A stretch of DNA of 64,000 nucleotides from Promethearchaeota archaeon Loki_b31 (lineage in GTDB: Archaea > Asgardarchaeota > Lokiarchaeia > Sigyniarchaeales > SOKP01), in the NCBI GenBank assembly GCA_005222975.1, contig NJBI01000001.1:42571-106570 (forward strand), written 5' to 3'. Below the pieces are notes generated by a model. That model ran no database searches. It was not told where the DNA came from and was given only the letters and a program-made list of their open reading frames with translations. The first letter of the stretch is position 1. Every line of letters starts with the position of its first letter. The translations under genes were made by a program, and so were the position numbers. Below, in pieces: positions 55,839 to 64,000 of the stretch.

Positions 55839-57014
55839 ATGGTTGATGTTAAAAACATTGTTATTATTGGTGCTGGTCTAATGGGCCATAATGCCGGTCA
55901 AATCTGTTTAATGGCTGGTTATAATGTAACATTAGTCGATATTAAAGATGAATTCGTTGATAATGGAGTTGCTAAAATAGATGAAGGGTTAAAAAAACTT
56001 GAAGCCAAAGGAAAGTTAGGTGAGGGTGTTTCTTCCGCTGATCTCATGGGAAAATTAAAAAAATCTACAGATACGGCAAGTGCAGTAAAAGACGCTGATT
56101 TTGTATTGGAAGCAGTTGTTGAATTAATGGATGTCAAAAAACAAGTTTTTAAAACTTGCGACGAAAACGCACCGGCTCATTGTATCTTAGCCACAAATAC
56201 TTCTACGATGAGCATTACTGAAATTGCTTCGGCAACAAACAGACCAGATAAAGTAATTGGTATGCACTTCTTTAATCCACCGATACTCATGAGATTAATT
56301 GAGATAATAGCAGGTGAAAAAAGTTCTGATGAGGCAATGGATATAGGTGTTCAAATCGGTCAATCTTTACCTTGTTTAAGAGGGAAGAGATTTGTTCCTA
56401 AAGTATTGAAGGATAGACCTGGATTTATAGTTAACAGAATGAATGCACCAGTACAAATTTATATAAATTGGATATTCGATCAAGCAGCTGAGAAAGGAAT
56501 TCCATGGGGTCAAATTGATGGTGATGCAGGATCTTTGATGCCAATGGGACCGTGTGAACTATCGGATTACGTAGGAATCGATACTATGTTTCATGTGGGT
56601 AATTATTACACAGAAACATTATCTCCTAATTTTAAGCCCGGAAAAGTTATTACCAAGATGGTTGAAGACAAGAAGCTTGGACGCAAAACAGCTCAAGGTT
56701 TTTATGATTGGTCTAAAGGAAGACCAAAAATCGATAAATCTCAAAAAGCAGGTCTATTTAGCGTTGAAACTTCAATGGCAATTATGTTAAACGAAGGTTG
56801 CCGTCTATTAGAAGAGAAAGTCGTAACAGGCTTCAAGGTAATTGACGAAGCAAATATGGCAGGAATGAACACACCTGGACCCTTTGCTGCTGGTAAAAAG
56901 CAATTTGAGAAATGGGCTAAGATTTTAGAAGAGTTAGCAGATAAGACTGGTATGGAATATCTTAAACCTTGCGAACTGATGAAATCAGGCGGCTTTGTAA
57001 GCATGCGAAAATAA
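55839..57014 (+). CDS. 3-hydroxyacyl-CoA dehydrogenase (NAD-binding plus C-terminal domains)
   Basis: IVIIGAGLMGHNAGQICLMAGYNVTLVDI (Rossmann fold), ATNTSTMSITEIA, GMHFFNPP and PGFIVNR. Confidence 0.85.
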   Translation: MVDVKNIVIIGAGLMGHNAGQICLMAGYNVTLVDIKDEFVDNGVAKIDEGLKKLEAKGKLGEGVSSADLMGKLKKSTDTASAVKDADFVLEAVVELMDVKKQVFKTCDENAPAHCILATNTSTMSITEIASATNRPDKVIGMHFFNPPILMRLIEIIAGEKSSDEAMDIGVQIGQSLPCLRGKRFVPKVLKDRPGFIVNRMNAPVQIYINWIFDQAAEKGIPWGQIDGDAGSLMPMGPCELSDYVGIDTMFHVGNYYTETLSPNFKPGKVITKMVEDKKLGRKTAQGFYDWSKGRPKIDKSQKAGLFSVETSMAIMLNEGCRLLEEKVVTGFKVIDEANMAGMNTPGPFAAGKKQFEKWAKILEELADKTGMEYLKPCELMKSGGFVSMRK

Positions 57015-57124
57015 TTCTAATCTTTTTTTTATTTTTATTTTTTTGTAAAGATTTAAATTTTTTGTCGGTATAATAAGAAAGAATAATTTTAAGATATTAA
57101 AAAAAACCTAAATGAGGAATAAAA

Positions 57125-57343
57125 ATGATTTTTCAAGAAGAGACTATTTTAGAGCCTATTTTTACATTTTTATGGTTAAGTGTAATTATTATAATAGTCA
57201 TTATTTATGTAATAGCAATAGCAATAGCTGTATGGGTTTACAACGATGCTAAGAAAAGAGATATGAATGCTGTAGTGTGGTTATTAATTGTGTTATTTAC
57301 TAGTTGTATCGGATGTATTATATATTTGATAGTTAGAGAATAG
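57125..57343 (+). CDS. PLDc_N-domain small membrane protein
   Basis: Two TM segments with VWVYNDAKKRDMNAVVWLLIVLFTSCIGCIIYLIVR. Confidence 0.5.
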   Translation: MIFQEETILEPIFTFLWLSVIIIIVIIYVIAIAIAVWVYNDAKKRDMNAVVWLLIVLFTSCIGCIIYLIVRE

Positions 57344-57578
57344 TCATGAGAAGATTTTGGAAGTAAAAGTAGATTTATAATTTTTGTCGGTTTATTAGCT
57401 TTTGATTTTCTTTTTTTTCCATTGTATTGTTGGTTTGATAGATTGAATTACTTTTTATATACGTTAAAAATTAGAAAATGAAAAATTTGAAAGTTTTTAA
57501 TTACTAAAAAAATTACTACTAAATATTCATAAATCAAATTTTAAAAATAATTAAATTAATTGAAAATAGGTTATTAAA

Positions 57579-57584
57579 AGAGGT
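57579..57584 (+). promoter_or_regulatory. Shine-Dalgarno-like AGAGGT 8 nt upstream of ATG 57593
   Basis: aaAGAGGTtattaaatATG. Confidence 0.35.
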
Positions 57585-57592
57585 TATTAAAT

Positions 57593-58543
57593 ATGTCGGA
57601 AAATGTATTTGAACATATTAAAATTGAATGGCCCACAAAAACAGACGAACAAGGTCATATTATTCGAGAAGGGACAATTGATGGAAATTACGCGGTAATA
57701 TCAATTAACAGACCAGATCGATTAAATGCTTTAACAAATCAAACAGTTTCAGAACTTGCTCAAGCTTTACGACTTATGGAAACTGATCCGAGCGTAAGAG
57801 CTGTAGTATTACGAGGTACAAAGAATGTAACTAAAAAACCTTCCTTTTCGGTAGGAGCTGATTTAGGTGCTGGTTTCGGTAAAGATCTAAAACCAAATAT
57901 CCCTTGGCATATGGCTTTAGCTATGAGATTACGACATCGTGATTATGATGAATTAGAACAATTTAATAAACCCTTAATTGCTGCTGTTGATGGTTTTGCT
58001 TTAGGTGGGGGTATCGAATTAGTGCTTACATGCGATATTGTTATTGCTTCTGATAGATCAATATTTGGGGTACCTGAAATCAATCGAGGAATTTTTCCTG
58101 CTAATGGCGGTATTACCCGCATGGCAGAGAGAGTAGGGCTTAATAGAGCACTCCGCATGGCTTATTTTGGTGAGCATTTCGAAGCTAAAACGATGCTCGA
58201 CTGGGGACTTGTCACTTGGATTGCGCCTGCTGGAGAAGAATTTGAAAAACTTGTCCACGAAAAAGCCAAATGGCTTGGTGATGCTCCAACAACAGCATTA
58301 TTTGTTATAAAGAAGGGTGTTAAATTTGGAACGCGCTATCCGCAATTAGGCCTTATCATGGAACAGATGGGTTTTGGAATCAACCAAGTATCCTTTGATG
58401 CAAAGGAAGGAATAATGGCTTTTAACAGAAAAGTTAAATGTCCAAATTGCGGCGGAAAAGGTAAATTTGAAGACGGTACAAAGTGTGACATGTGCGGTGG
58501 CAGAAGAAAGATAAAGGATACACCTCATTTTAAAGGAATTTAA
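57593..58543 (+). CDS. Enoyl-CoA hydratase/isomerase (crotonase) fused to a C-terminal DnaJ-type CxxCxGxG zinc-finger hairpin
   Basis: Crotonase core INRPDRLNALT, AAVDGFALGGGIELVLTCDIVIAS and GVPEINRGIFP. The C-terminus is KCPNCGGKGKFEDGTKCDMCGGRRKI (nt about 58436-58513). Confidence 0.8.
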   Translation: MSENVFEHIKIEWPTKTDEQGHIIREGTIDGNYAVISINRPDRLNALTNQTVSELAQALRLMETDPSVRAVVLRGTKNVTKKPSFSVGADLGAGFGKDLKPNIPWHMALAMRLRHRDYDELEQFNKPLIAAVDGFALGGGIELVLTCDIVIASDRSIFGVPEINRGIFPANGGITRMAERVGLNRALRMAYFGEHFEAKTMLDWGLVTWIAPAGEEFEKLVHEKAKWLGDAPTTALFVIKKGVKFGTRYPQLGLIMEQMGFGINQVSFDAKEGIMAFNRKVKCPNCGGKGKFEDGTKCDMCGGRRKIKDTPHFKGI

Positions 58544-58641
58544 ATAACATTTGAATTTTTTTTTCTTTTTTTCCTTAACAATATTTCTTTTTAATAATAT
58601 TTTCTATAATTTTTTAAACAATTTTAGTTATAAAATAACTA

Positions 58642-59190
58642 ATGGCAAATATCGAAATAATCGATGAAATTAACGAAGGAAATCTTTTTCTTAGGAAGGT
58701 TTCTAAAGATGACCTTTCTTTTTTTTATAATAGTCTTAATAATAAAGAGATGACTAATTTTTTGTCGTTAGGACCGCTAAGATCTTTAGAACATTCAAGA
58801 AGATTAATCAAAAATTATCTAAAATCATGGGATAAATATCTTCAATTTAATTATGTTATAGAATTACGAGATGATAAAAGTAAAAGTAGGATTGGTTCAG
58901 CTAGTCTCTGGAATATAAGTTGGTTTCATAATCGTTCTGGTGTTGGAATATGGATTCTTCCAGAATATTGGGAGAAAGGATTAGGTAAACGAGTAATAAA
59001 ATTACTTAAAAATATTGCTTTTAACCATTTAAATCTAAATAGGATCGAAGCACATATCGCTGTTAAAAATGAAAGGTCCATCAAAATGTTTAAAAACTCT
59101 AACTTCGAAGAGGAAGGAATACTAAGAAAATATCTTAATATTAACGGTAAATTTTATGATGCTTTGATACTTTCTTCTTTTAAAATTTAA
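58642..59190 (+). CDS. GNAT acetyltransferase, RimJ/RimL (Acetyltransf_3) type
   Basis: LFLRKVSKDDLSFFY..., GKRVIKLLKNIAFNHLNLNRIEAHIAVKNERSIKMFKNSNFEEEGILRKY. Confidence 0.75.
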   Translation: MANIEIIDEINEGNLFLRKVSKDDLSFFYNSLNNKEMTNFLSLGPLRSLEHSRRLIKNYLKSWDKYLQFNYVIELRDDKSKSRIGSASLWNISWFHNRSGVGIWILPEYWEKGLGKRVIKLLKNIAFNHLNLNRIEAHIAVKNERSIKMFKNSNFEEEGILRKYLNINGKFYDALILSSFKI

Positions 59191-59633
59191 AAAACTCCAG
59201 GACTTATTACAAAATTTCTCAAAAGTCCTTTAGGTTTTATCATATCATTAATATCCTTAGAGAAACTTTTAAAAGGAGCAACATTTCCGTTAAAATTCAT
59301 CAATTCGCTTTTAAATTTAACAAAGAAATTATCAAAGATTTTAACAGCAATATTGTCGATTGACTTTTTTTTCAGCTTTTTATTATCGACTTTACTATCA
59401 CATTTTAAAATCAGATGAAAATTAGTTCTAGGATGCGTTTTAAAATAAAATACGCTTCTTTTCATTTTTAAAGTGGTTAAACTCTCTTTGAACCCGTATT
59501 TGGTAAATCGGCAAATCTGGTCGAAATAGCTACCAATTAATTGATAATTATTATCCTCATTTGAACTACCGCTAAAGTTATGGTAAAATATGGGAATGCC
59601 CGTGTTATTAAGAATAATAATCTCTTGGATCAA
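59187..59633 (-). CDS. Stand-alone longin/roadblock-like domain protein
   Basis: MIQEIIILNNTGIPIFYHNFSG...LIGSYFDQICRFTK...FHLILKCD is collinear with the N-domain of the GTPase fusion at 36485. Confidence 0.5.
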   Translation of the reverse strand: MIQEIIILNNTGIPIFYHNFSGSSNEDNNYQLIGSYFDQICRFTKYGFKESLTTLKMKRSVFYFKTHPRTNFHLILKCDSKVDNKKLKKKSIDNIAVKIFDNFFVKFKSELMNFNGNVAPFKSFSKDINDMIKPKGLLRNFVISPGVF

Positions 59634-59738: not shown

Positions 59739-60707
59739 CTATTTTTTTTTAAAAACAGCTTTTAATTGGCTCAATATTTCTTTAAATATTTCAAGAGCTC
59801 CAGAATAATCGTCATATTTCAAGGCTTCGATACCTTGGATGTTTAAATTGTTAACCTTAGTTTTTAATTCTTCGCTTTTGGAAACTTCCCTTATCTTATT
59901 TTCAATAATATCAATATATTCAGTATATTTCTCTAAATAATGATTTTTACCAATAAATCTTGAAATTTTAATAATTTTCTTAATATTGTTTATTGCTTGC
60001 TCAAATTGATTTTGAGAAACATTTTGTTTAATTTCGCTTTCTAAATCTTTTAAATCTTCTTCTAATTTAAGATATTTATCCTCAGCATCAATTAAACTTT
60101 TCATTTTTATTTTTAATTTCTGTTGATAATCTAAGAAATCTCCTTTTTGCAAAAATTCTATCTTAGAGTTAAGTATTTGTTTTGCCTTATCAAATTCGTA
60201 ATTATCTATTAATCTTGAAACTTCTGCCAATGAATGTTCAATGTCTTCATTGATATCAATTTTTTTTTTTAATTCTAAAAATATTGCTTCGGAAGTTTCC
60301 CACATTTTCAGCGTTTCGGTATCTTTAAGCTTTTTCAGAAGAGTTTTTGCTTGTTCTAATGTTTCTTCTGCTAATGTGATATTATTAGTACTGATATAGC
60401 TATTAAACTGGATTTCTAATGGTTCAAGTTGTTTTTTTAGAGTATTTTGTTGTTTTTCAATTTCAATAATTTTATTATTTTCTTTAACTTTTTTATAAAG
60501 GTCTGCAATGAACTCTCCTTCCTCCCTTACAATAGAATATAATTTAGCATCTTCAGCTATTTCCATTATTTCTTCTGCTATTTTTATTGCGTCATCAAAT
60601 TTACCCATTAAATAGTGGTTATTCGCTATTACTTTTAACTCATCAATTTTAGATAAAACTACTATTTTTTTCTTATTATTAGTTTCTTTGTCTGAGTTTA
60701 AATCCAA
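59739..60707 (-). CDS. Alpha-helical repeat (TPR-like hairpin/coiled-coil) protein
   Basis: Recurrent motif x-[FY]-[DE]-x-A-x5-I: HYLMGKFDDAIKIAEEI, NYEFDKAKQIL, QNQFEQAINNIKKI, YDDYSGALEIFKEIL. It lies 2 nt downstream of the preceding gene. Confidence 0.5.
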   Translation of the reverse strand: MDLNSDKETNNKKKIVVLSKIDELKVIANNHYLMGKFDDAIKIAEEIMEIAEDAKLYSIVREEGEFIADLYKKVKENNKIIEIEKQQNTLKKQLEPLEIQFNSYISTNNITLAEETLEQAKTLLKKLKDTETLKMWETSEAIFLELKKKIDINEDIEHSLAEVSRLIDNYEFDKAKQILNSKIEFLQKGDFLDYQQKLKIKMKSLIDAEDKYLKLEEDLKDLESEIKQNVSQNQFEQAINNIKKIIKISRFIGKNHYLEKYTEYIDIIENKIREVSKSEELKTKVNNLNIQGIEALKYDDYSGALEIFKEILSQLKAVFKKK

Positions 60708-60709
60708 TA

Positions 60710-61771
60710 CTATGCACCCGTCAAAGTTTTATTCTTAAATTCTAATTTTTTGATAATTTTTTCAAAGATTTCTATAGCTTTAGATTTTTCACCTTTTTCC
60801 AAATTATTAAGGGCTTCCATACTTACTTGAGCTATTTCACTAACTGTTTCTTTTTTTGCTTCATTATATTGGGTTTCAAATTGTTTCAAACTATTTAAAA
60901 CATCATCATCAAATAAATTCTTAATCTCAGCTTTAATTTTTCCAAAAAATTCTTTTGCTTGCTTTAAATTACCTTTATTGGGACCTGTTTTAAACGAATT
61001 ATAGAATTCATCAATTTCCTTTTTTATTTTTTCTTGTTCGATTTTCAAACTATATATCATGTTTTCATCTTTTAATATTAGTTGCTGGGCTAAGGGAATT
61101 GAAGAAATGTTGTATTCATCTTCGTATTTTTTTTTGAAATCATCTACTAGGCTATGTGCCTCTCGATAATTCTCTACCTCCACTAACTGGTTAAAATTTT
61201 TAATTCCTTCCCTACTTTGATGTTCTATTTGGTGAAGAATTTCACTAGCGCTCTCTCTCGATTGAGCTTCGTTGATAAAGTTGATTTGATCTTGCTCAAG
61301 AGAAACATCGTCTATATCCTTGGCAAGGTTAACAATTTTCTGAGCAGCATTAATTGCCATATCGTAATTTTCTGAAATGAAATACTTATCTACCTTTTCT
61401 TTTAACCTGTTTATTTCAGAAAGAATTGGTAACAAATTAGTCTCTAGCTTTTTAATTCTAACTTTCAGGACCTCTTCTGTAATCCCAATAACATTTAAAA
61501 ATTCCGCAGGTTCTAATCCTGATTCGATTGTAATGTTTCTTAAAATCTTTAATTCCGGATACTCACTTGAAATAGCTCCCCGTATTTGTGGGATAAGTTT
61601 TTTCAAGCTTTGCGAGACTTTTTTCCCAATCCAAATATACACTAATCTTTGATTTGGCACGTAAAATGTTAAGATATCAAACAGAGTAAAGCTAAGGAGT
61701 ATTTTCTCTTCTGAAATTTCCTTAAAGGTTCCAGAATAATTTAACTTAAAAATTTTAATATTAGAACTCAT
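60710..61771 (-). CDS. Gelsolin-like N-terminal domain fused to an alpha-helical repeat tail
   Basis: N-terminal about 100 aa: IKIFKLN...SFTLFDILTFYVPNQRLVYIWIGKKVSQSLKKLIPQIRGAI...IESGLEPAEFLNVIG. This follows the gelsolin-repeat pattern (f.l.sgD.fil....iy.W.G...s..ek..a...a......eg.Ep.eF...lg). The tail carries the same helical repeats as 59739..60707. Confidence 0.5.
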   Translation of the reverse strand: MSSNIKIFKLNYSGTFKEISEEKILLSFTLFDILTFYVPNQRLVYIWIGKKVSQSLKKLIPQIRGAISSEYPELKILRNITIESGLEPAEFLNVIGITEEVLKVRIKKLETNLLPILSEINRLKEKVDKYFISENYDMAINAAQKIVNLAKDIDDVSLEQDQINFINEAQSRESASEILHQIEHQSREGIKNFNQLVEVENYREAHSLVDDFKKKYEDEYNISSIPLAQQLILKDENMIYSLKIEQEKIKKEIDEFYNSFKTGPNKGNLKQAKEFFGKIKAEIKNLFDDDVLNSLKQFETQYNEAKKETVSEIAQVSMEALNNLEKGEKSKAIEIFEKIIKKLEFKNKTLTGA

Positions 61772-61902
61772 CTATACAATCATTAAGTTATGATAATATT
61801 TCAATTTTCTTTAGTATAAATTAAAATTATAATGTCCAATAAATATTTTAAGTTATCATAAGTGAAAAAAAAAAAAATGAAAAATAAAAAATTGATTAAC
61901 TT

Positions 61903-64000
61903 TTAATTCTTAGAACTTTCAACGGGTTTCTTTATAATCTGTTTTGGTTTAGTAATTTGTTCTACGGGTCTTCCTTTCAATAATTTGGATGTCTTATTTA
62001 ATTCACTTTGGTATTCAACACTGAAAGCTTTTTCTCTCTCCGTTATATCAATTCTTGGATTTTTTGTTTTTCCAAGTGTTTTAGAAAATTTTCTAACTTT
62101 TCTAACTGGTTTGGGATATTTCAAATATTTTTGGTAAGCGTAAATGTAACCTCCAATTATTATAGCCGCTGAAGTTATAGCAATTATCATGATTAAAATC
62201 AGTAATGCTTCTTCTGCGGGTGTAATAGCACTCACCGTTATCTCAAAGTTTTCAAATTCATAATTATCTCCGTAATAGGCGGTAATAGTAATTTTAATAG
62301 TACCTTCAGGTATATTTTCAAAAACTATCTCATATATTCCATCATTGTCTGGATCCACAAGAAAACCATGTCCAAGAGCACCACTATATGACACAATTGC
62401 GCCTTTTATTGTTCCTCCAAAATCTAAATCATATAATACGACTTTTATTGTTACTGCATCTCCGGGATGAACCGATATTTTTGAGATTCCATCCTCCGTG
62501 GTAATATTCGTATAAATTCGTCTGATGTCGATTCTGAGATCGTTAGTCTGAAGTATGTAATTTTCTTTTTCTGCAGAAACTGCTATGATTCTTATCCCAA
62601 TATCTAAAATGCTTGAATTGAATGTATAAGAATATTGTTTTAATGTTTTATCTTCAGTTAAACTATTTGATATCGCTCCAAATAAAGTAACTGTGGCATT
62701 TTCAATGTGATTACCACCTAAGTCAGTATATCTTACAGTTATGTTTAAGAGTTTACCGATAGCAATATCAGTAGATGGATCAATAGTCATATTTATGCCA
62801 TTTAGGTAAATTTCTAATAGCGTTCTCCTTTCAGTCACCTCCGTAATAAAGCGAATCGATTTAGGGTTATAATTAGTCAAATTAGCAAAAATTGATAAAT
62901 AATCAATCCCTAAACCTAATTCAGAAGCATTCAACAAAAAACTATATTGACCAAGGATGGGTTTTTCTACGAACGACTCGGAAAGTCCCCCTCCAGCTAA
63001 CTTTATTGTCGCTCCACCTAAATGATTAGAAGAGGCATCTTTATAAGTGACTGTAATATTTAATTTTTGCCAAAATTCAATTGAAACTACATCGTCTTCA
63101 TATTTTTCAGTGCCATTTATAAATAATTCTAAAAATGACGCTTTTTCAGTTATAAAAATCCTAATTGGAATAGATTGTGGTTGGTACATGTTAGCTTTAA
63201 CTGTAATTATCATTGAATATAGCTTATCTGGCTGGTATCCTGGACCAGAAGCATTACAAGTGAGCGTATACACACCTTGAGTAACCATAACAAAGTGCTG
63301 TTCACCTGCCCAATTTGTCGAAAGATTATTTGTTTCAATTCCAATACCACTATATATTTCAGTATAATTAAATTGAATTGTAAAATTCTGCTCGAAAGGA
63401 ACGCCAGTAAAATAGTCATTATCAACTGTAAGAATTGTATTTTTGATGATGCTAATTGTAATGTTTGCTTCACTACTTACAAAAGCAGGCGAATTTGCAT
63501 AGATCGTCAATGTATTATTGCCCGCATTTGGAGCTCCAGTAACATTAAATTCAAGAAAGTAATAACCTGGACTTATTTCATTAAAATATTGGATTATTGA
63601 AGGGTGAGTAAAATTATAAGTATAAATAATCGCATTTTCGATCGCATCAAAGTTTTCTAAATCGTTGAATGATACTCTTAAATTTAATACTGAACCATCA
63701 ATTATATCCTCATAAAAGCTGATGTCTGGTATAAGCTCAGAATCGTGCCTAACGCTAAATTTTTTATAAATAATCCCTGTTTCGTTCAAACCATAAATTG
63801 AGTAAGAATTATTCCACGTTATAATTGCTTCATATTCTCCAACTTCATAATTAGGTGGTACCGAGGGAATTTGAAACGCATTGAAATGAACATAACCATT
63901 AGAGTCAACTGAAGCAAATTGACTTTGACCAGACCATAAAGTGCCATTCGGAAACCTAATTTGGAGAAATGCTTTTGTATTTTGAATGTAGCTTGAAACC
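61903..64000 (-). CDS. Large type-I membrane-anchored surface (glyco)protein with Ig-like internal repeats. The 5' end runs off the right window edge
   Basis: The frame stays open from 63789 to 64000 (manual check: no stop), so the TTG at 63789 is not the real start. There are at least 15 N-x-S/T sequons and two consecutive repeats of about 105 aa. A C-terminal TM (ALLILIMIIAITSAAIIIGGYIYAY) is followed by a basic cytoplasmic tail. Confidence 0.6.
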   Translation of the reverse strand, partial: VSSYIQNTKAFLQIRFPNGTLWSGQSQFASVDSNGYVHFNAFQIPSVPPNYEVGEYEAIITWNNSYSIYGLNETGIIYKKFSVRHDSELIPDISFYEDIIDGSVLNLRVSFNDLENFDAIENAIIYTYNFTHPSIIQYFNEISPGYYFLEFNVTGAPNAGNNTLTIYANSPAFVSSEANITISIIKNTILTVDNDYFTGVPFEQNFTIQFNYTEIYSGIGIETNNLSTNWAGEQHFVMVTQGVYTLTCNASGPGYQPDKLYSMIITVKANMYQPQSIPIRIFITEKASFLELFINGTEKYEDDVVSIEFWQKLNITVTYKDASSNHLGGATIKLAGGGLSESFVEKPILGQYSFLLNASELGLGIDYLSIFANLTNYNPKSIRFITEVTERRTLLEIYLNGINMTIDPSTDIAIGKLLNITVRYTDLGGNHIENATVTLFGAISNSLTEDKTLKQYSYTFNSSILDIGIRIIAVSAEKENYILQTNDLRIDIRRIYTNITTEDGISKISVHPGDAVTIKVVLYDLDFGGTIKGAIVSYSGALGHGFLVDPDNDGIYEIVFENIPEGTIKITITAYYGDNYEFENFEITVSAITPAEEALLILIMIIAITSAAIIIGGYIYAYQKYLKYPKPVRKVRKFSKTLGKTKNPRIDITEREKAFSVEYQSELNKTSKLLKGRPVEQITKPKQIIKKPVESSKN

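Follow-up and report, generated by a model that had tools for sequence, protein, structure and literature searches.

Asgard archaea encode proteins in which a single gelsolin domain is joined to an additional region. Akil et al. (2020) defined and assayed such proteins under the name 1DGelX, a single gelsolin domain plus an unknown domain X (PMC7444086). In that work the Thor 1DGelX protein was found to nucleate and sever actin in a Ca2+-independent manner, ProGel was crystallized bound to actin (PDB 7C2F), domain X was predicted to be a coiled coil, and C-terminal extensions were proposed to add binding to the sides of actin filaments (PMC7444086). Akil et al. (2022) subsequently put the number of 1DGelX proteins at two for MKD1 and at three for Loki GC14_75 (PMC9433394), and a 2025 preprint describes B35_GelX (GNAMCCOK_00673) of L. 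ossiferum, which is reported to cluster with Thor_1DGelX (KXH72031.1) (10.1101/2025.11.30.690169). Here, we consider a gene that we call GelX, located in a stretch of 64,000 nucleotides from Promethearchaeota archaeon Loki_b31 (contig NJBI01000001.1, positions 42,571 to 106,570; hereafter the window). Its product carries a gelsolin-type head on an array of helical hairpins, and the gene is accompanied by a head-less paralogue of the array (TailP), a small longin-fold protein (Small) and a series of surface glycoproteins. A first-pass annotation, made from the letters of the window alone, had regarded the architecture as unreported. This does not hold for the class, which was published in 2020 (PMC7444086), but the helical-tail family itself represents a new variation, confined to one lineage, on the known Asgard theme of gelsolin plus extension, and the conserved gene module to which it belongs, with its dedicated cytoplasmic-tail motif, is likewise previously undescribed in the searchable literature, where no description of either the family or its gene cluster was found. 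Tentatively, we suggest that the products of the cluster may form a sub-membrane complex that couples surface glycoproteins to actin.

The identity and architecture of the protein can be stated with high confidence: GelX is a cytoplasmic protein made up of a ProGel-type gelsolin-fold head and a four-hairpin array, encoded as follows.

60710..61771, minus strand: GelX open reading frame (ORF), 353 residues, ~41 kDa; position confirmed from the ORFs.
61457..61771, minus strand: gelsolin-fold domain of GelX, residues 1-105, identified by a sequence match and by AlphaFold2 (AF2) and Foldseek.
60710..61456, minus strand: tail of GelX, residues 106-353 and the stop codon, four hairpins of one long and one short helix each, from AF2 and profile alignment.

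An AF2 model of GelX, generated from a 39-member family alignment, has a mean predicted local distance difference test score (pLDDT) of 86 and contains a beta/alpha domain at residues 1-95, in which four beta strands are followed by a helix (54-70), a further strand (78-83) and a second helix (89-95). This is the alpha/beta fold of the gelsolin/ADF-H sandwich, in which a mixed beta-sheet lies between one long and one short helix. The first-pass annotation had predicted a gelsolin-type head and had named a Foldseek comparison as one check of it; the comparison returned a gelsolin-type fold, with all of the top 50 matches in the PDB being gelsolin-superfamily domains and the best of them Thorarchaeota ProGel (7c2f_B; TM-score 0.79, root mean square deviation 2.8 Å). 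Significant similarity to established gelsolin/ADF-H members is also present in sequence. A phmmer search of GelX against all PDB chains gave 7c2f_B as the sole significant match (E 9.5e-5, query 30-98), with ~33% identity over 69 residues, and a profile of the 39 family members retrieved the same chain at E 1.2e-4 and the Loki 2DGel chain 7whg_G at E 8.5e-3.

The motifs that had been quoted in support of the head fall on conserved columns. They comprise hhWxG, present as YIWIGKK, and a C-terminal G-x-E-P-x-x-F, present as ESGLEPAEF, the columns of which are invariant or near-invariant in the family (W47, E87 and F91). The segment that follows WxG is basic (GKKVSQSLKK), with no acidic residues where Ca2+-binding gelsolins carry them, and on inspection of the sequence GelX is therefore without an apparent gelsolin-type Ca2+ site. 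The long-helix segment of ProGel aligns well with that of GelX and, by analogy with the ProGel/actin structure, the head is predicted to be of the actin-binding type. Three actin-family genes are present in the window's genome, including one that encodes a bona fide actin (G000:C75:68705-69817; PF00022, E 2e-132).

The remainder of GelX is helical, as had been predicted. In the AF2 model the tail consists of eight helices, arranged as four hairpins (residues 99-152, 156-216, 226-282 and 289-343), each of which combines a long helix of 34-43 residues with a short helix of ~15 residues. The four units align in register, weakly (sub-profile comparison, P 5e-4 to 3e-2); on the evidence of the model, the repeat is plain in structure and faint in sequence. 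The first hairpin (LLPxLSEINRLK...SLExDQxNFIxEA) is conserved as strongly as the gelsolin head. Of the earlier description of the tail as TPR-like, where TPR stands for tetratricopeptide repeat, the helical repeats stand but membership of the TPR families falls away: the repeat unit is ~57 residues, compared with 34 for TPR, and matches to the models searched (PF07719, PF00515 and PF13424) lie below the Pfam thresholds, the best being to TPR_2 at 23.6 bits for TailP and 14.6 bits for GelX against a threshold of 27. In TailP, it is the first hairpin alone that gives these sub-threshold scores. A remote-homology search yielded no significant PDB sequence homologue of the GelX tail and an NCBIfam search yielded no match; no homology to adaptins or coat proteins was detected, the hairpin repeats not being HEAT/adaptin-like.

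The tail has a free-standing counterpart immediately downstream.

60708..60709, minus strand: spacer of 2 nucleotides between the GelX stop codon (TAG) and the TailP start codon (TTG), from base-level reading.
59739..60707, minus strand: TailP, 322 residues, gelsolin-less paralogue of the GelX tail, from profile alignment and the ORF.
61772..61902, minus strand: AT-rich intergenic region of 131 nucleotides between the surface-protein gene and GelX, from reading of the sequence.

Inspection at the level of single bases confirmed the coordinates and strand that the first-pass annotation had given for GelX and TailP, as well as the 2-nucleotide gap between them; the junction reads GCA TAG ta TTG, comprising the GelX stop, the two spacer nucleotides and the TailP start. 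Orthologues of TailP begin at the same position of the alignment, with ATG, GTG or TTG as the codon, and the start is therefore considered real. The 2-nucleotide arrangement is conserved, and translation of GelX and TailP is probably coupled. A long T-run occurs in the intergenic region after the surface-protein gene, and the region probably holds both a terminator and a promoter. GelX and TailP may therefore constitute a transcription unit of their own. The paralogy of TailP and the GelX tail, also proposed from the first reading, was established by hhalign of the two family profiles (99.85% probability, E 1.3e-30; GelX 116-350 against TailP 15-251); by pairwise BLASTP alone the relationship is marginal (E 0.001). 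TailP has ~130 additional C-terminal residues relative to the GelX tail, and the version in the window is without a ~60-residue hairpin that is found in orthologues of 378-384 residues. A third class of paralogue, encoded by ORFs of ~165-200 residues, matches only tail positions ~113-250, equivalent to about two hairpins. An example is located elsewhere in the window's genome (G000:C75:96368-96766, minus strand), and equivalents occur in most genomes of the order, unlinked to the cluster.

The relationship of GelX to the published 1DGelX proteins is one of class. With one gelsolin domain at its N terminus and an extension of another kind behind it, GelX falls within the 1DGelX architecture, which might suggest that it is a plain orthologue of the published family and nothing new. 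The coiled-coil prediction for domain X and the migration of 1DGelX near actin on gels, which fits a mass of ~41 kDa, are compatible with this (PMC7444086), and the Loki counts of two or three 1DGelX proteins may include members of the GelX family (PMC9433394). However, orthology of GelX to 1DGelX/B35_GelX was not found in a comparison that covered the B35_GelX locus of L. ossiferum, the window's genome and a sample of genomes across the phylum. In the L. ossiferum chromosome (CP104013.1) the GelX profile matches at ~3.742 Mb (plus strand) and ~3.356 Mb (minus strand), whereas gene 00673, encoding B35_GelX, is expected at 0.79-0.88 Mb on a calibration with 2DGel1 and 2DGel2. The sole gelsolin-like gene in that interval, at 0.818 Mb, is an orthologue of another, PF00626-positive family of 312 residues. 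Its 346-residue product has a different layout: the gelsolin domain is connected by a long linker of low complexity to a small folded domain, after which comes a disordered tail. This fits the preprint's description of B35_GelX, the protein reported to cluster with Thor_1DGelX; the GelX profile gives no match at this locus. Furthermore, orthologues of the B35_GelX family are encoded separately in the window's genome, at C71 and C64, and no GelX-profile match at E <= 1e-10 was obtained in the ~190 sampled genomes that belong to different orders or classes. As the GelX family was not found in these genomes, a true Thorarchaeon should lack it. Simple orthology is, in our judgement, very unlikely.

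Other gelsolin-domain genes are present in the window's genome at six or more loci (G000 C25:10021-10521, C2:7818-8006, C71:10507-11082, C64:16793-17134, C75:111188-111328 and C81:8026-8325). They include a two-domain type in a 347-residue frame and several single-domain types, two of which are orthologues of the published 1DGelX type.

The GelX family is rare, and the genomes in which it was found all belong to a single GTDB order of Asgard archaea. A phmmer search with the GelX head alone against 1.84 billion representative proteins gave 85 matches at E <= 1e-3, in nearly every one of which the head occupies residues 1 to ~105. Family members range in length from ~350 to ~1,400 residues, with tails of ~250 to >1,000 residues; the short form of ~350 residues is typical of the window's genus, and frames of 540-916 residues occur in other genera. 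In a GTDB-based search the family was found in 44 of 251 genomes of the phylum, all 44 belonging to the window's order. A pan-Asgard spread, as NCBI titles naming Thor, Hod, Odin, Hermod and Heimdall would imply, was considered and rejected, GTDB placing every positive genome in the one order; because of this conflict the NCBI titles are unreliable for phyletic claims. Such titles are attached to the metagenome-assembled genomes of loci L026, L032, L036, L041 and L042 and of proteins P0079, P0089, P0103 and P0109.

A second candidate that was rejected, on the basis of hhalign, is a GelX-TailP fusion as the origin of the 775-residue protein of locus L068 and of the >829-residue L. ossiferum form. 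In the L068 protein a gelsolin head is joined to a single TailP-type tail of full length that contains a beta-rich insert, and a separate head-less paralogue is still encoded after it. The insert of the long forms (L069; L. ossiferum CP104013.1, ~3.742 Mb; L068, 838-3165) is ~200 residues long (IIEDIIPYNFEI...LHWVV...), has no Pfam family match and sits between the hairpin array and the last TPR-like hairpin.

The first-pass annotation had placed a giant surface protein next to GelX, and the adjoining upstream ORF does indeed encode a type-I membrane glycoprotein of 1233 residues.

61903..>63999, minus strand: ORF upstream of GelX, 1233-residue type-I membrane glycoprotein, running beyond the window.
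62218..64000, minus strand: part of its sequon-rich ectodomain, with 36 N-x-S/T sites and a weak match to the Ig-like Big_1 family.
62161..62217, minus strand: its single C-terminal transmembrane helix, residues 1130-1148.
61906..62160, minus strand: its cytoplasmic tail, residues 1149-1233, which carries the cluster motif.

On the window's contig five co-directional genes, encoding proteins of 1233, 1247, 546, 558 and 1114 residues, lie ahead of GelX. Each product has a signal peptide, an ectodomain with 10-36 N-x-S/T sites, one C-terminal transmembrane helix and a cytoplasmic tail of 80-100 residues. Common to the tails is a strongly conserved basic motif, Y..[VI]..[YF]PxP[VI]RK[VIL]RK[YF].K[TS]L.....P...I..R..[AS]F...[YF]..E[LI].K[TS].K.LKG.P, which in the 1233-residue protein takes the form YPKPVRKVRKF..TL....P...I..R..AF..Y..EL.KTSK.LKG.P; a tail peptide of the cluster reads YQKYLKYPKPVRKVRKFSKTLGKTKNPRIDITEREKAFSVEYQSELNKTSKLLKGRP. 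Across the fetched loci 96 copies of the motif were counted, every one upstream of GelX and in the same direction; in the window's genome the motif is confined to the cluster, where 5 genes hold 6 copies. No other part of these proteins is as well conserved as the cytoplasmic tail, at 59-67% identity compared with 30-45% for the ectodomains. The 1114-residue protein (G000:C61:115554-118898; L083 11255-14599, minus strand) resembles a tandem fusion of two units of ~550 residues; it has an internal pair of transmembrane helices and an internal copy of the tail motif, implying an out-in-out-in topology.

The remaining component lies downstream of TailP.

59187..59633, minus strand: Small, 148 residues, longin fold, from AF2, Foldseek and an orthologue alignment.

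The AF2 model of Small, generated from 25 orthologues, has a moderate pLDDT of 72 and a topology, as assigned by DSSP, of beta-beta-alpha-beta-beta-beta-alpha-alpha. This is the topology and structure of a longin, in agreement with the earlier description of the neighbour as longin-like: Foldseek matches are to the TRAPP subunits Bet5, Trs20 and Tca17 (TM-score up to 0.68), AP sigma, zeta-COP, SRX and Mon1-Ccz1, with Roadblock proteins ranking below the longins. No Pfam or NCBIfam match to Small was obtained, and longin membership is not recovered by sequence profiles. The TTG start codon of Small (window 59631-59633) is kept in nearly all of the ~30 orthologues, an unusually conserved non-ATG start.

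These fold matches raise the possibility of a sorting or anchoring adaptor that operates independently of actin. Small and the two helical-repeat paralogues would read the cytoplasmic tail as a signal for sorting, retention or clustering, following the logic of the hemicomplexes formed by sigma-adaptins and large subunits, and the part played by the gelsolin fold would be limited to protein-protein contact, as in Sec23/24. Consistent with this are the TRAPP, AP sigma and zeta-COP likeness of Small, the exclusive association of the tail motif with the cluster, the failure of PF00626 to recognize the GelX head, and the absence of the B35 family members from the named gelsolins of a Lokiactin co-immunoprecipitation. 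Set against it is the fact that ProGel, a protein crystallized on actin (PMC7444086), is the head's nearest relative by sequence as well as by structure, and that the ProGel long-helix segment aligns well with that of GelX. Nor are the hairpins HEAT/adaptin-like or homologous to adaptins or coat proteins, and neither GTPase nor vesicle-coat genes were found in the cluster. We regard an adaptor of this kind as unlikely.

Gene order was compared by local tblastn over all fetched loci. The order surface paralogues, GelX, TailP and Small, all co-directional, recurs in ~30 non-redundant loci, in which GelX identity ranges from 92% to 34%, so that the conservation of the four-gene block that had been suggested as a check is seen, although it is not universal. 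One to five type-I membrane glycoproteins are encoded directly upstream of GelX in the window's genus and in several sister genera. Genes for GNAT, ECH and 3-hydroxyacyl-CoA dehydrogenase (3HCDH) proteins are convergent to the cluster in ~30 loci. In loci L041, L042 and G144 the region is rearranged to give a surface protein, Small, a long GelX (the 775-residue form) and a long head-less paralogue; the metabolic genes are several kb off, but the four types of component are still adjacent. Cluster linkage thus outlasts local rearrangement at these three loci.

This observation bears on a further alternative, in which GelX is a stand-alone actin regulator that severs, caps or nucleates in the manner of Thor 1DGelX, its helical tail providing filament side-binding or dimerization and its neighbours being an inherited gene order. 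The published behaviour of 1DGelX and the F-actin side binding proposed for its extensions (PMC7444086) speak for such a regulator, as do the occurrence of the family in genus g2 and in cultured strains without membrane-protein or longin neighbours and the fact that unrelated metabolic genes are syntenic as well. What it does not readily accommodate is that the tail-motif genes, Small, GelX and the paralogue have stayed together through a rearrangement that parted them from the metabolic genes, that the tail motif is confined to the cluster, and that in fast-evolving surface proteins the cytoplasmic tail should be the part that is best conserved. We consider a stand-alone role, too, to be on the improbable side.

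Several side observations concern the region around the cluster. The convergent GNAT/ECH/3-hydroxyacyl-CoA dehydrogenase trio occupies window positions 55839-59190, with an ORF for a 72-residue transmembrane protein (57125-57343) between the dehydrogenase and ECH genes. At its C terminus the ECH-family protein itself (316 residues; 57593-58543, plus strand) resembles a DnaJ-type zinc finger and contains two CxxCxGxG motifs (KCPNCGGKGKFEDGTKCDMCGGRRK), an unusual appendage on an ECH enzyme. Locus L018 (DATKTW010000003.1), titled 'Candidatus Nanopelagicaceae bacterium', carries a complete Asgard cluster in full synteny, with a GelX that is 58% identical, and is probably a misbinned contig.

The linker to actin, which is the reading that we tentatively prefer, can be formulated as a series of steps. 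GelX and TailP would pair via their paralogous hairpin arrays, and the pair, together with Small, would dock on the conserved juxtamembrane tails of the glycoproteins. Contact with Lokiactin, whether monomeric or filamentous, would be made by the gelsolin head, using the long-helix surface with which ProGel binds actin. The outcome would be actin that is tethered or locally remodelled beneath the surface glycoproteins, and in function the complex would be the archaeal equivalent of receptor-to-actin linkers. The evidence in its favour comprises the similarity to ProGel, the presence of an actin gene, the paralogy of the tails, the 2-nucleotide coupling, synteny, the tail motif and the longin fold. 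In its strictest form, that of a self-contained receptor-to-cytoskeleton module in which the longin and a heterodimer of hairpin paralogues read the tail motif and the gelsolin head couples the glycoproteins to Lokiactin, the proposal is a doubtful one. Asgard gelsolin-plus-extension proteins are known to sever and nucleate actin (PMC7444086). Lokiarchaeia have no S-layer, and cryo-electron tomography of L. ossiferum has revealed complex surface proteins and actin filaments along the membrane (PMC9834061), a context that makes a linker plausible and proves nothing. The earlier suggestion of a link to the membrane or cell surface is sustained, genuinely if indirectly, by conserved gene linkage and a cluster-exclusive tail motif.

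A number of observations weigh against the linker. The first-pass annotation had proposed a search with PF00626, and this gave no match to the GelX head, either in Pfam (even at E <= 10) or in a six-frame search of the genome (E <= 1), although five other loci of the same genome are detected by that model. The head lies below the PF00626 gathering threshold (21 bits), its sub-cut-off Pfam matches being to DUF7904 (E 0.012) and MPK1_gelsolin_C (E 0.06). As regards linkage, the tail-motif gene of genus g2 is ~190 kb from GelX, and in the closed genome G213 and in L. ossiferum there is a single tail-like match apiece, which is weak and unlinked. The family members of g2, G213 and L. ossiferum B35 are long forms that do not adjoin tail-motif proteins or a homologue of Small, and the most distant loci are without Small. 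Because g2 and the cultured relatives have long, unlinked forms, linkage of the cluster is not universal; and, as the GNAT, ECH and 3HCDH genes are also syntenic, common descent accounts for some of the conservation. Both the binding of actin by GelX and the interactions between the products of the cluster are putative. Finally, the B35 members of the GelX family are not among the five gelsolin-homology proteins enriched in a Lokiactin co-immunoprecipitation from L. ossiferum (10.1101/2025.11.30.690169), as judged by gene position. This last evidence is weak, because the table consists of gene identifiers only, with neither coordinates nor lengths, and is not mappable.

To our knowledge, the Asgard actin regulators described so far (profilins, ProGel, 2DGel and 1DGelX) are soluble and have no known membrane partners. 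The GelX family offers a concrete, testable candidate for a connection between actin and the membrane or surface in Asgard archaea, with four defined components: a gelsolin-head protein, a head-less paralogue, a longin protein and a tail peptide of ~60 residues. Were the link real, receptor-actin coupling, possibly with recognition of a tail motif by longin and helical-repeat proteins, would have existed in archaea; and were the module reading true in full, adaptor-type recognition of cargo tails and adhesion-type linkage to actin would have a joint precedent in prokaryotes. If the link is not real, the gelsolin superfamily still gains a new branch restricted to one lineage.

Comparison with known systems places the locus between several of them. 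With integrin-talin and cadherin-catenin the resemblance is a functional analogy, in that a type-I glycoprotein with a short conserved tail, helical-bundle adaptors and an actin-binding module would act together; no homology to these systems was detected, and the interactions here are ones that we infer from gene linkage. The longins of TRAPP, AP and COPI complexes (Bet5, Trs20, the sigma-adaptins and zeta-COP) share their fold with Small, and in adaptor complexes the longin subunit lies against a partner built of helical repeats, the two jointly reading the cytoplasmic tails of cargo. Small differs from them in having no Pfam match, its partner helical proteins are not HEAT/adaptin-like, and the cluster is without GTPase or coat genes. 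Gelsolin, villin, CapG and adseverin of eukaryotes have the same fold as the GelX head (Foldseek matches 2-50) and the same hhWxG and GxEPxxF motifs, but contain 3-6 tandem domains and are regulated by Ca2+, whereas GelX is single-domain, PF00626-negative and has no detectable Ca2+ ligands. The 1DGelX proteins (KXH72031.1; B35_GelX, UYP44381.1) share with GelX one N-terminal gelsolin domain and a non-gelsolin extension, the Thor protein being Ca2+-independent in published assays. Their extension is a charged or low-complexity linker with a small folded X and they are detected by Pfam, whereas that of GelX is an ordered hairpin array with a free-standing paralogue. ProGel is closest of all to the GelX head, whether judged by sequence or by structure, and each is a single gelsolin/cofilin-type domain without Ca2+ sites. 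ProGel, however, is a bare domain of ~92 residues, to which GelX adds a hairpin array of ~250 residues and a cluster of membrane-protein and longin genes.

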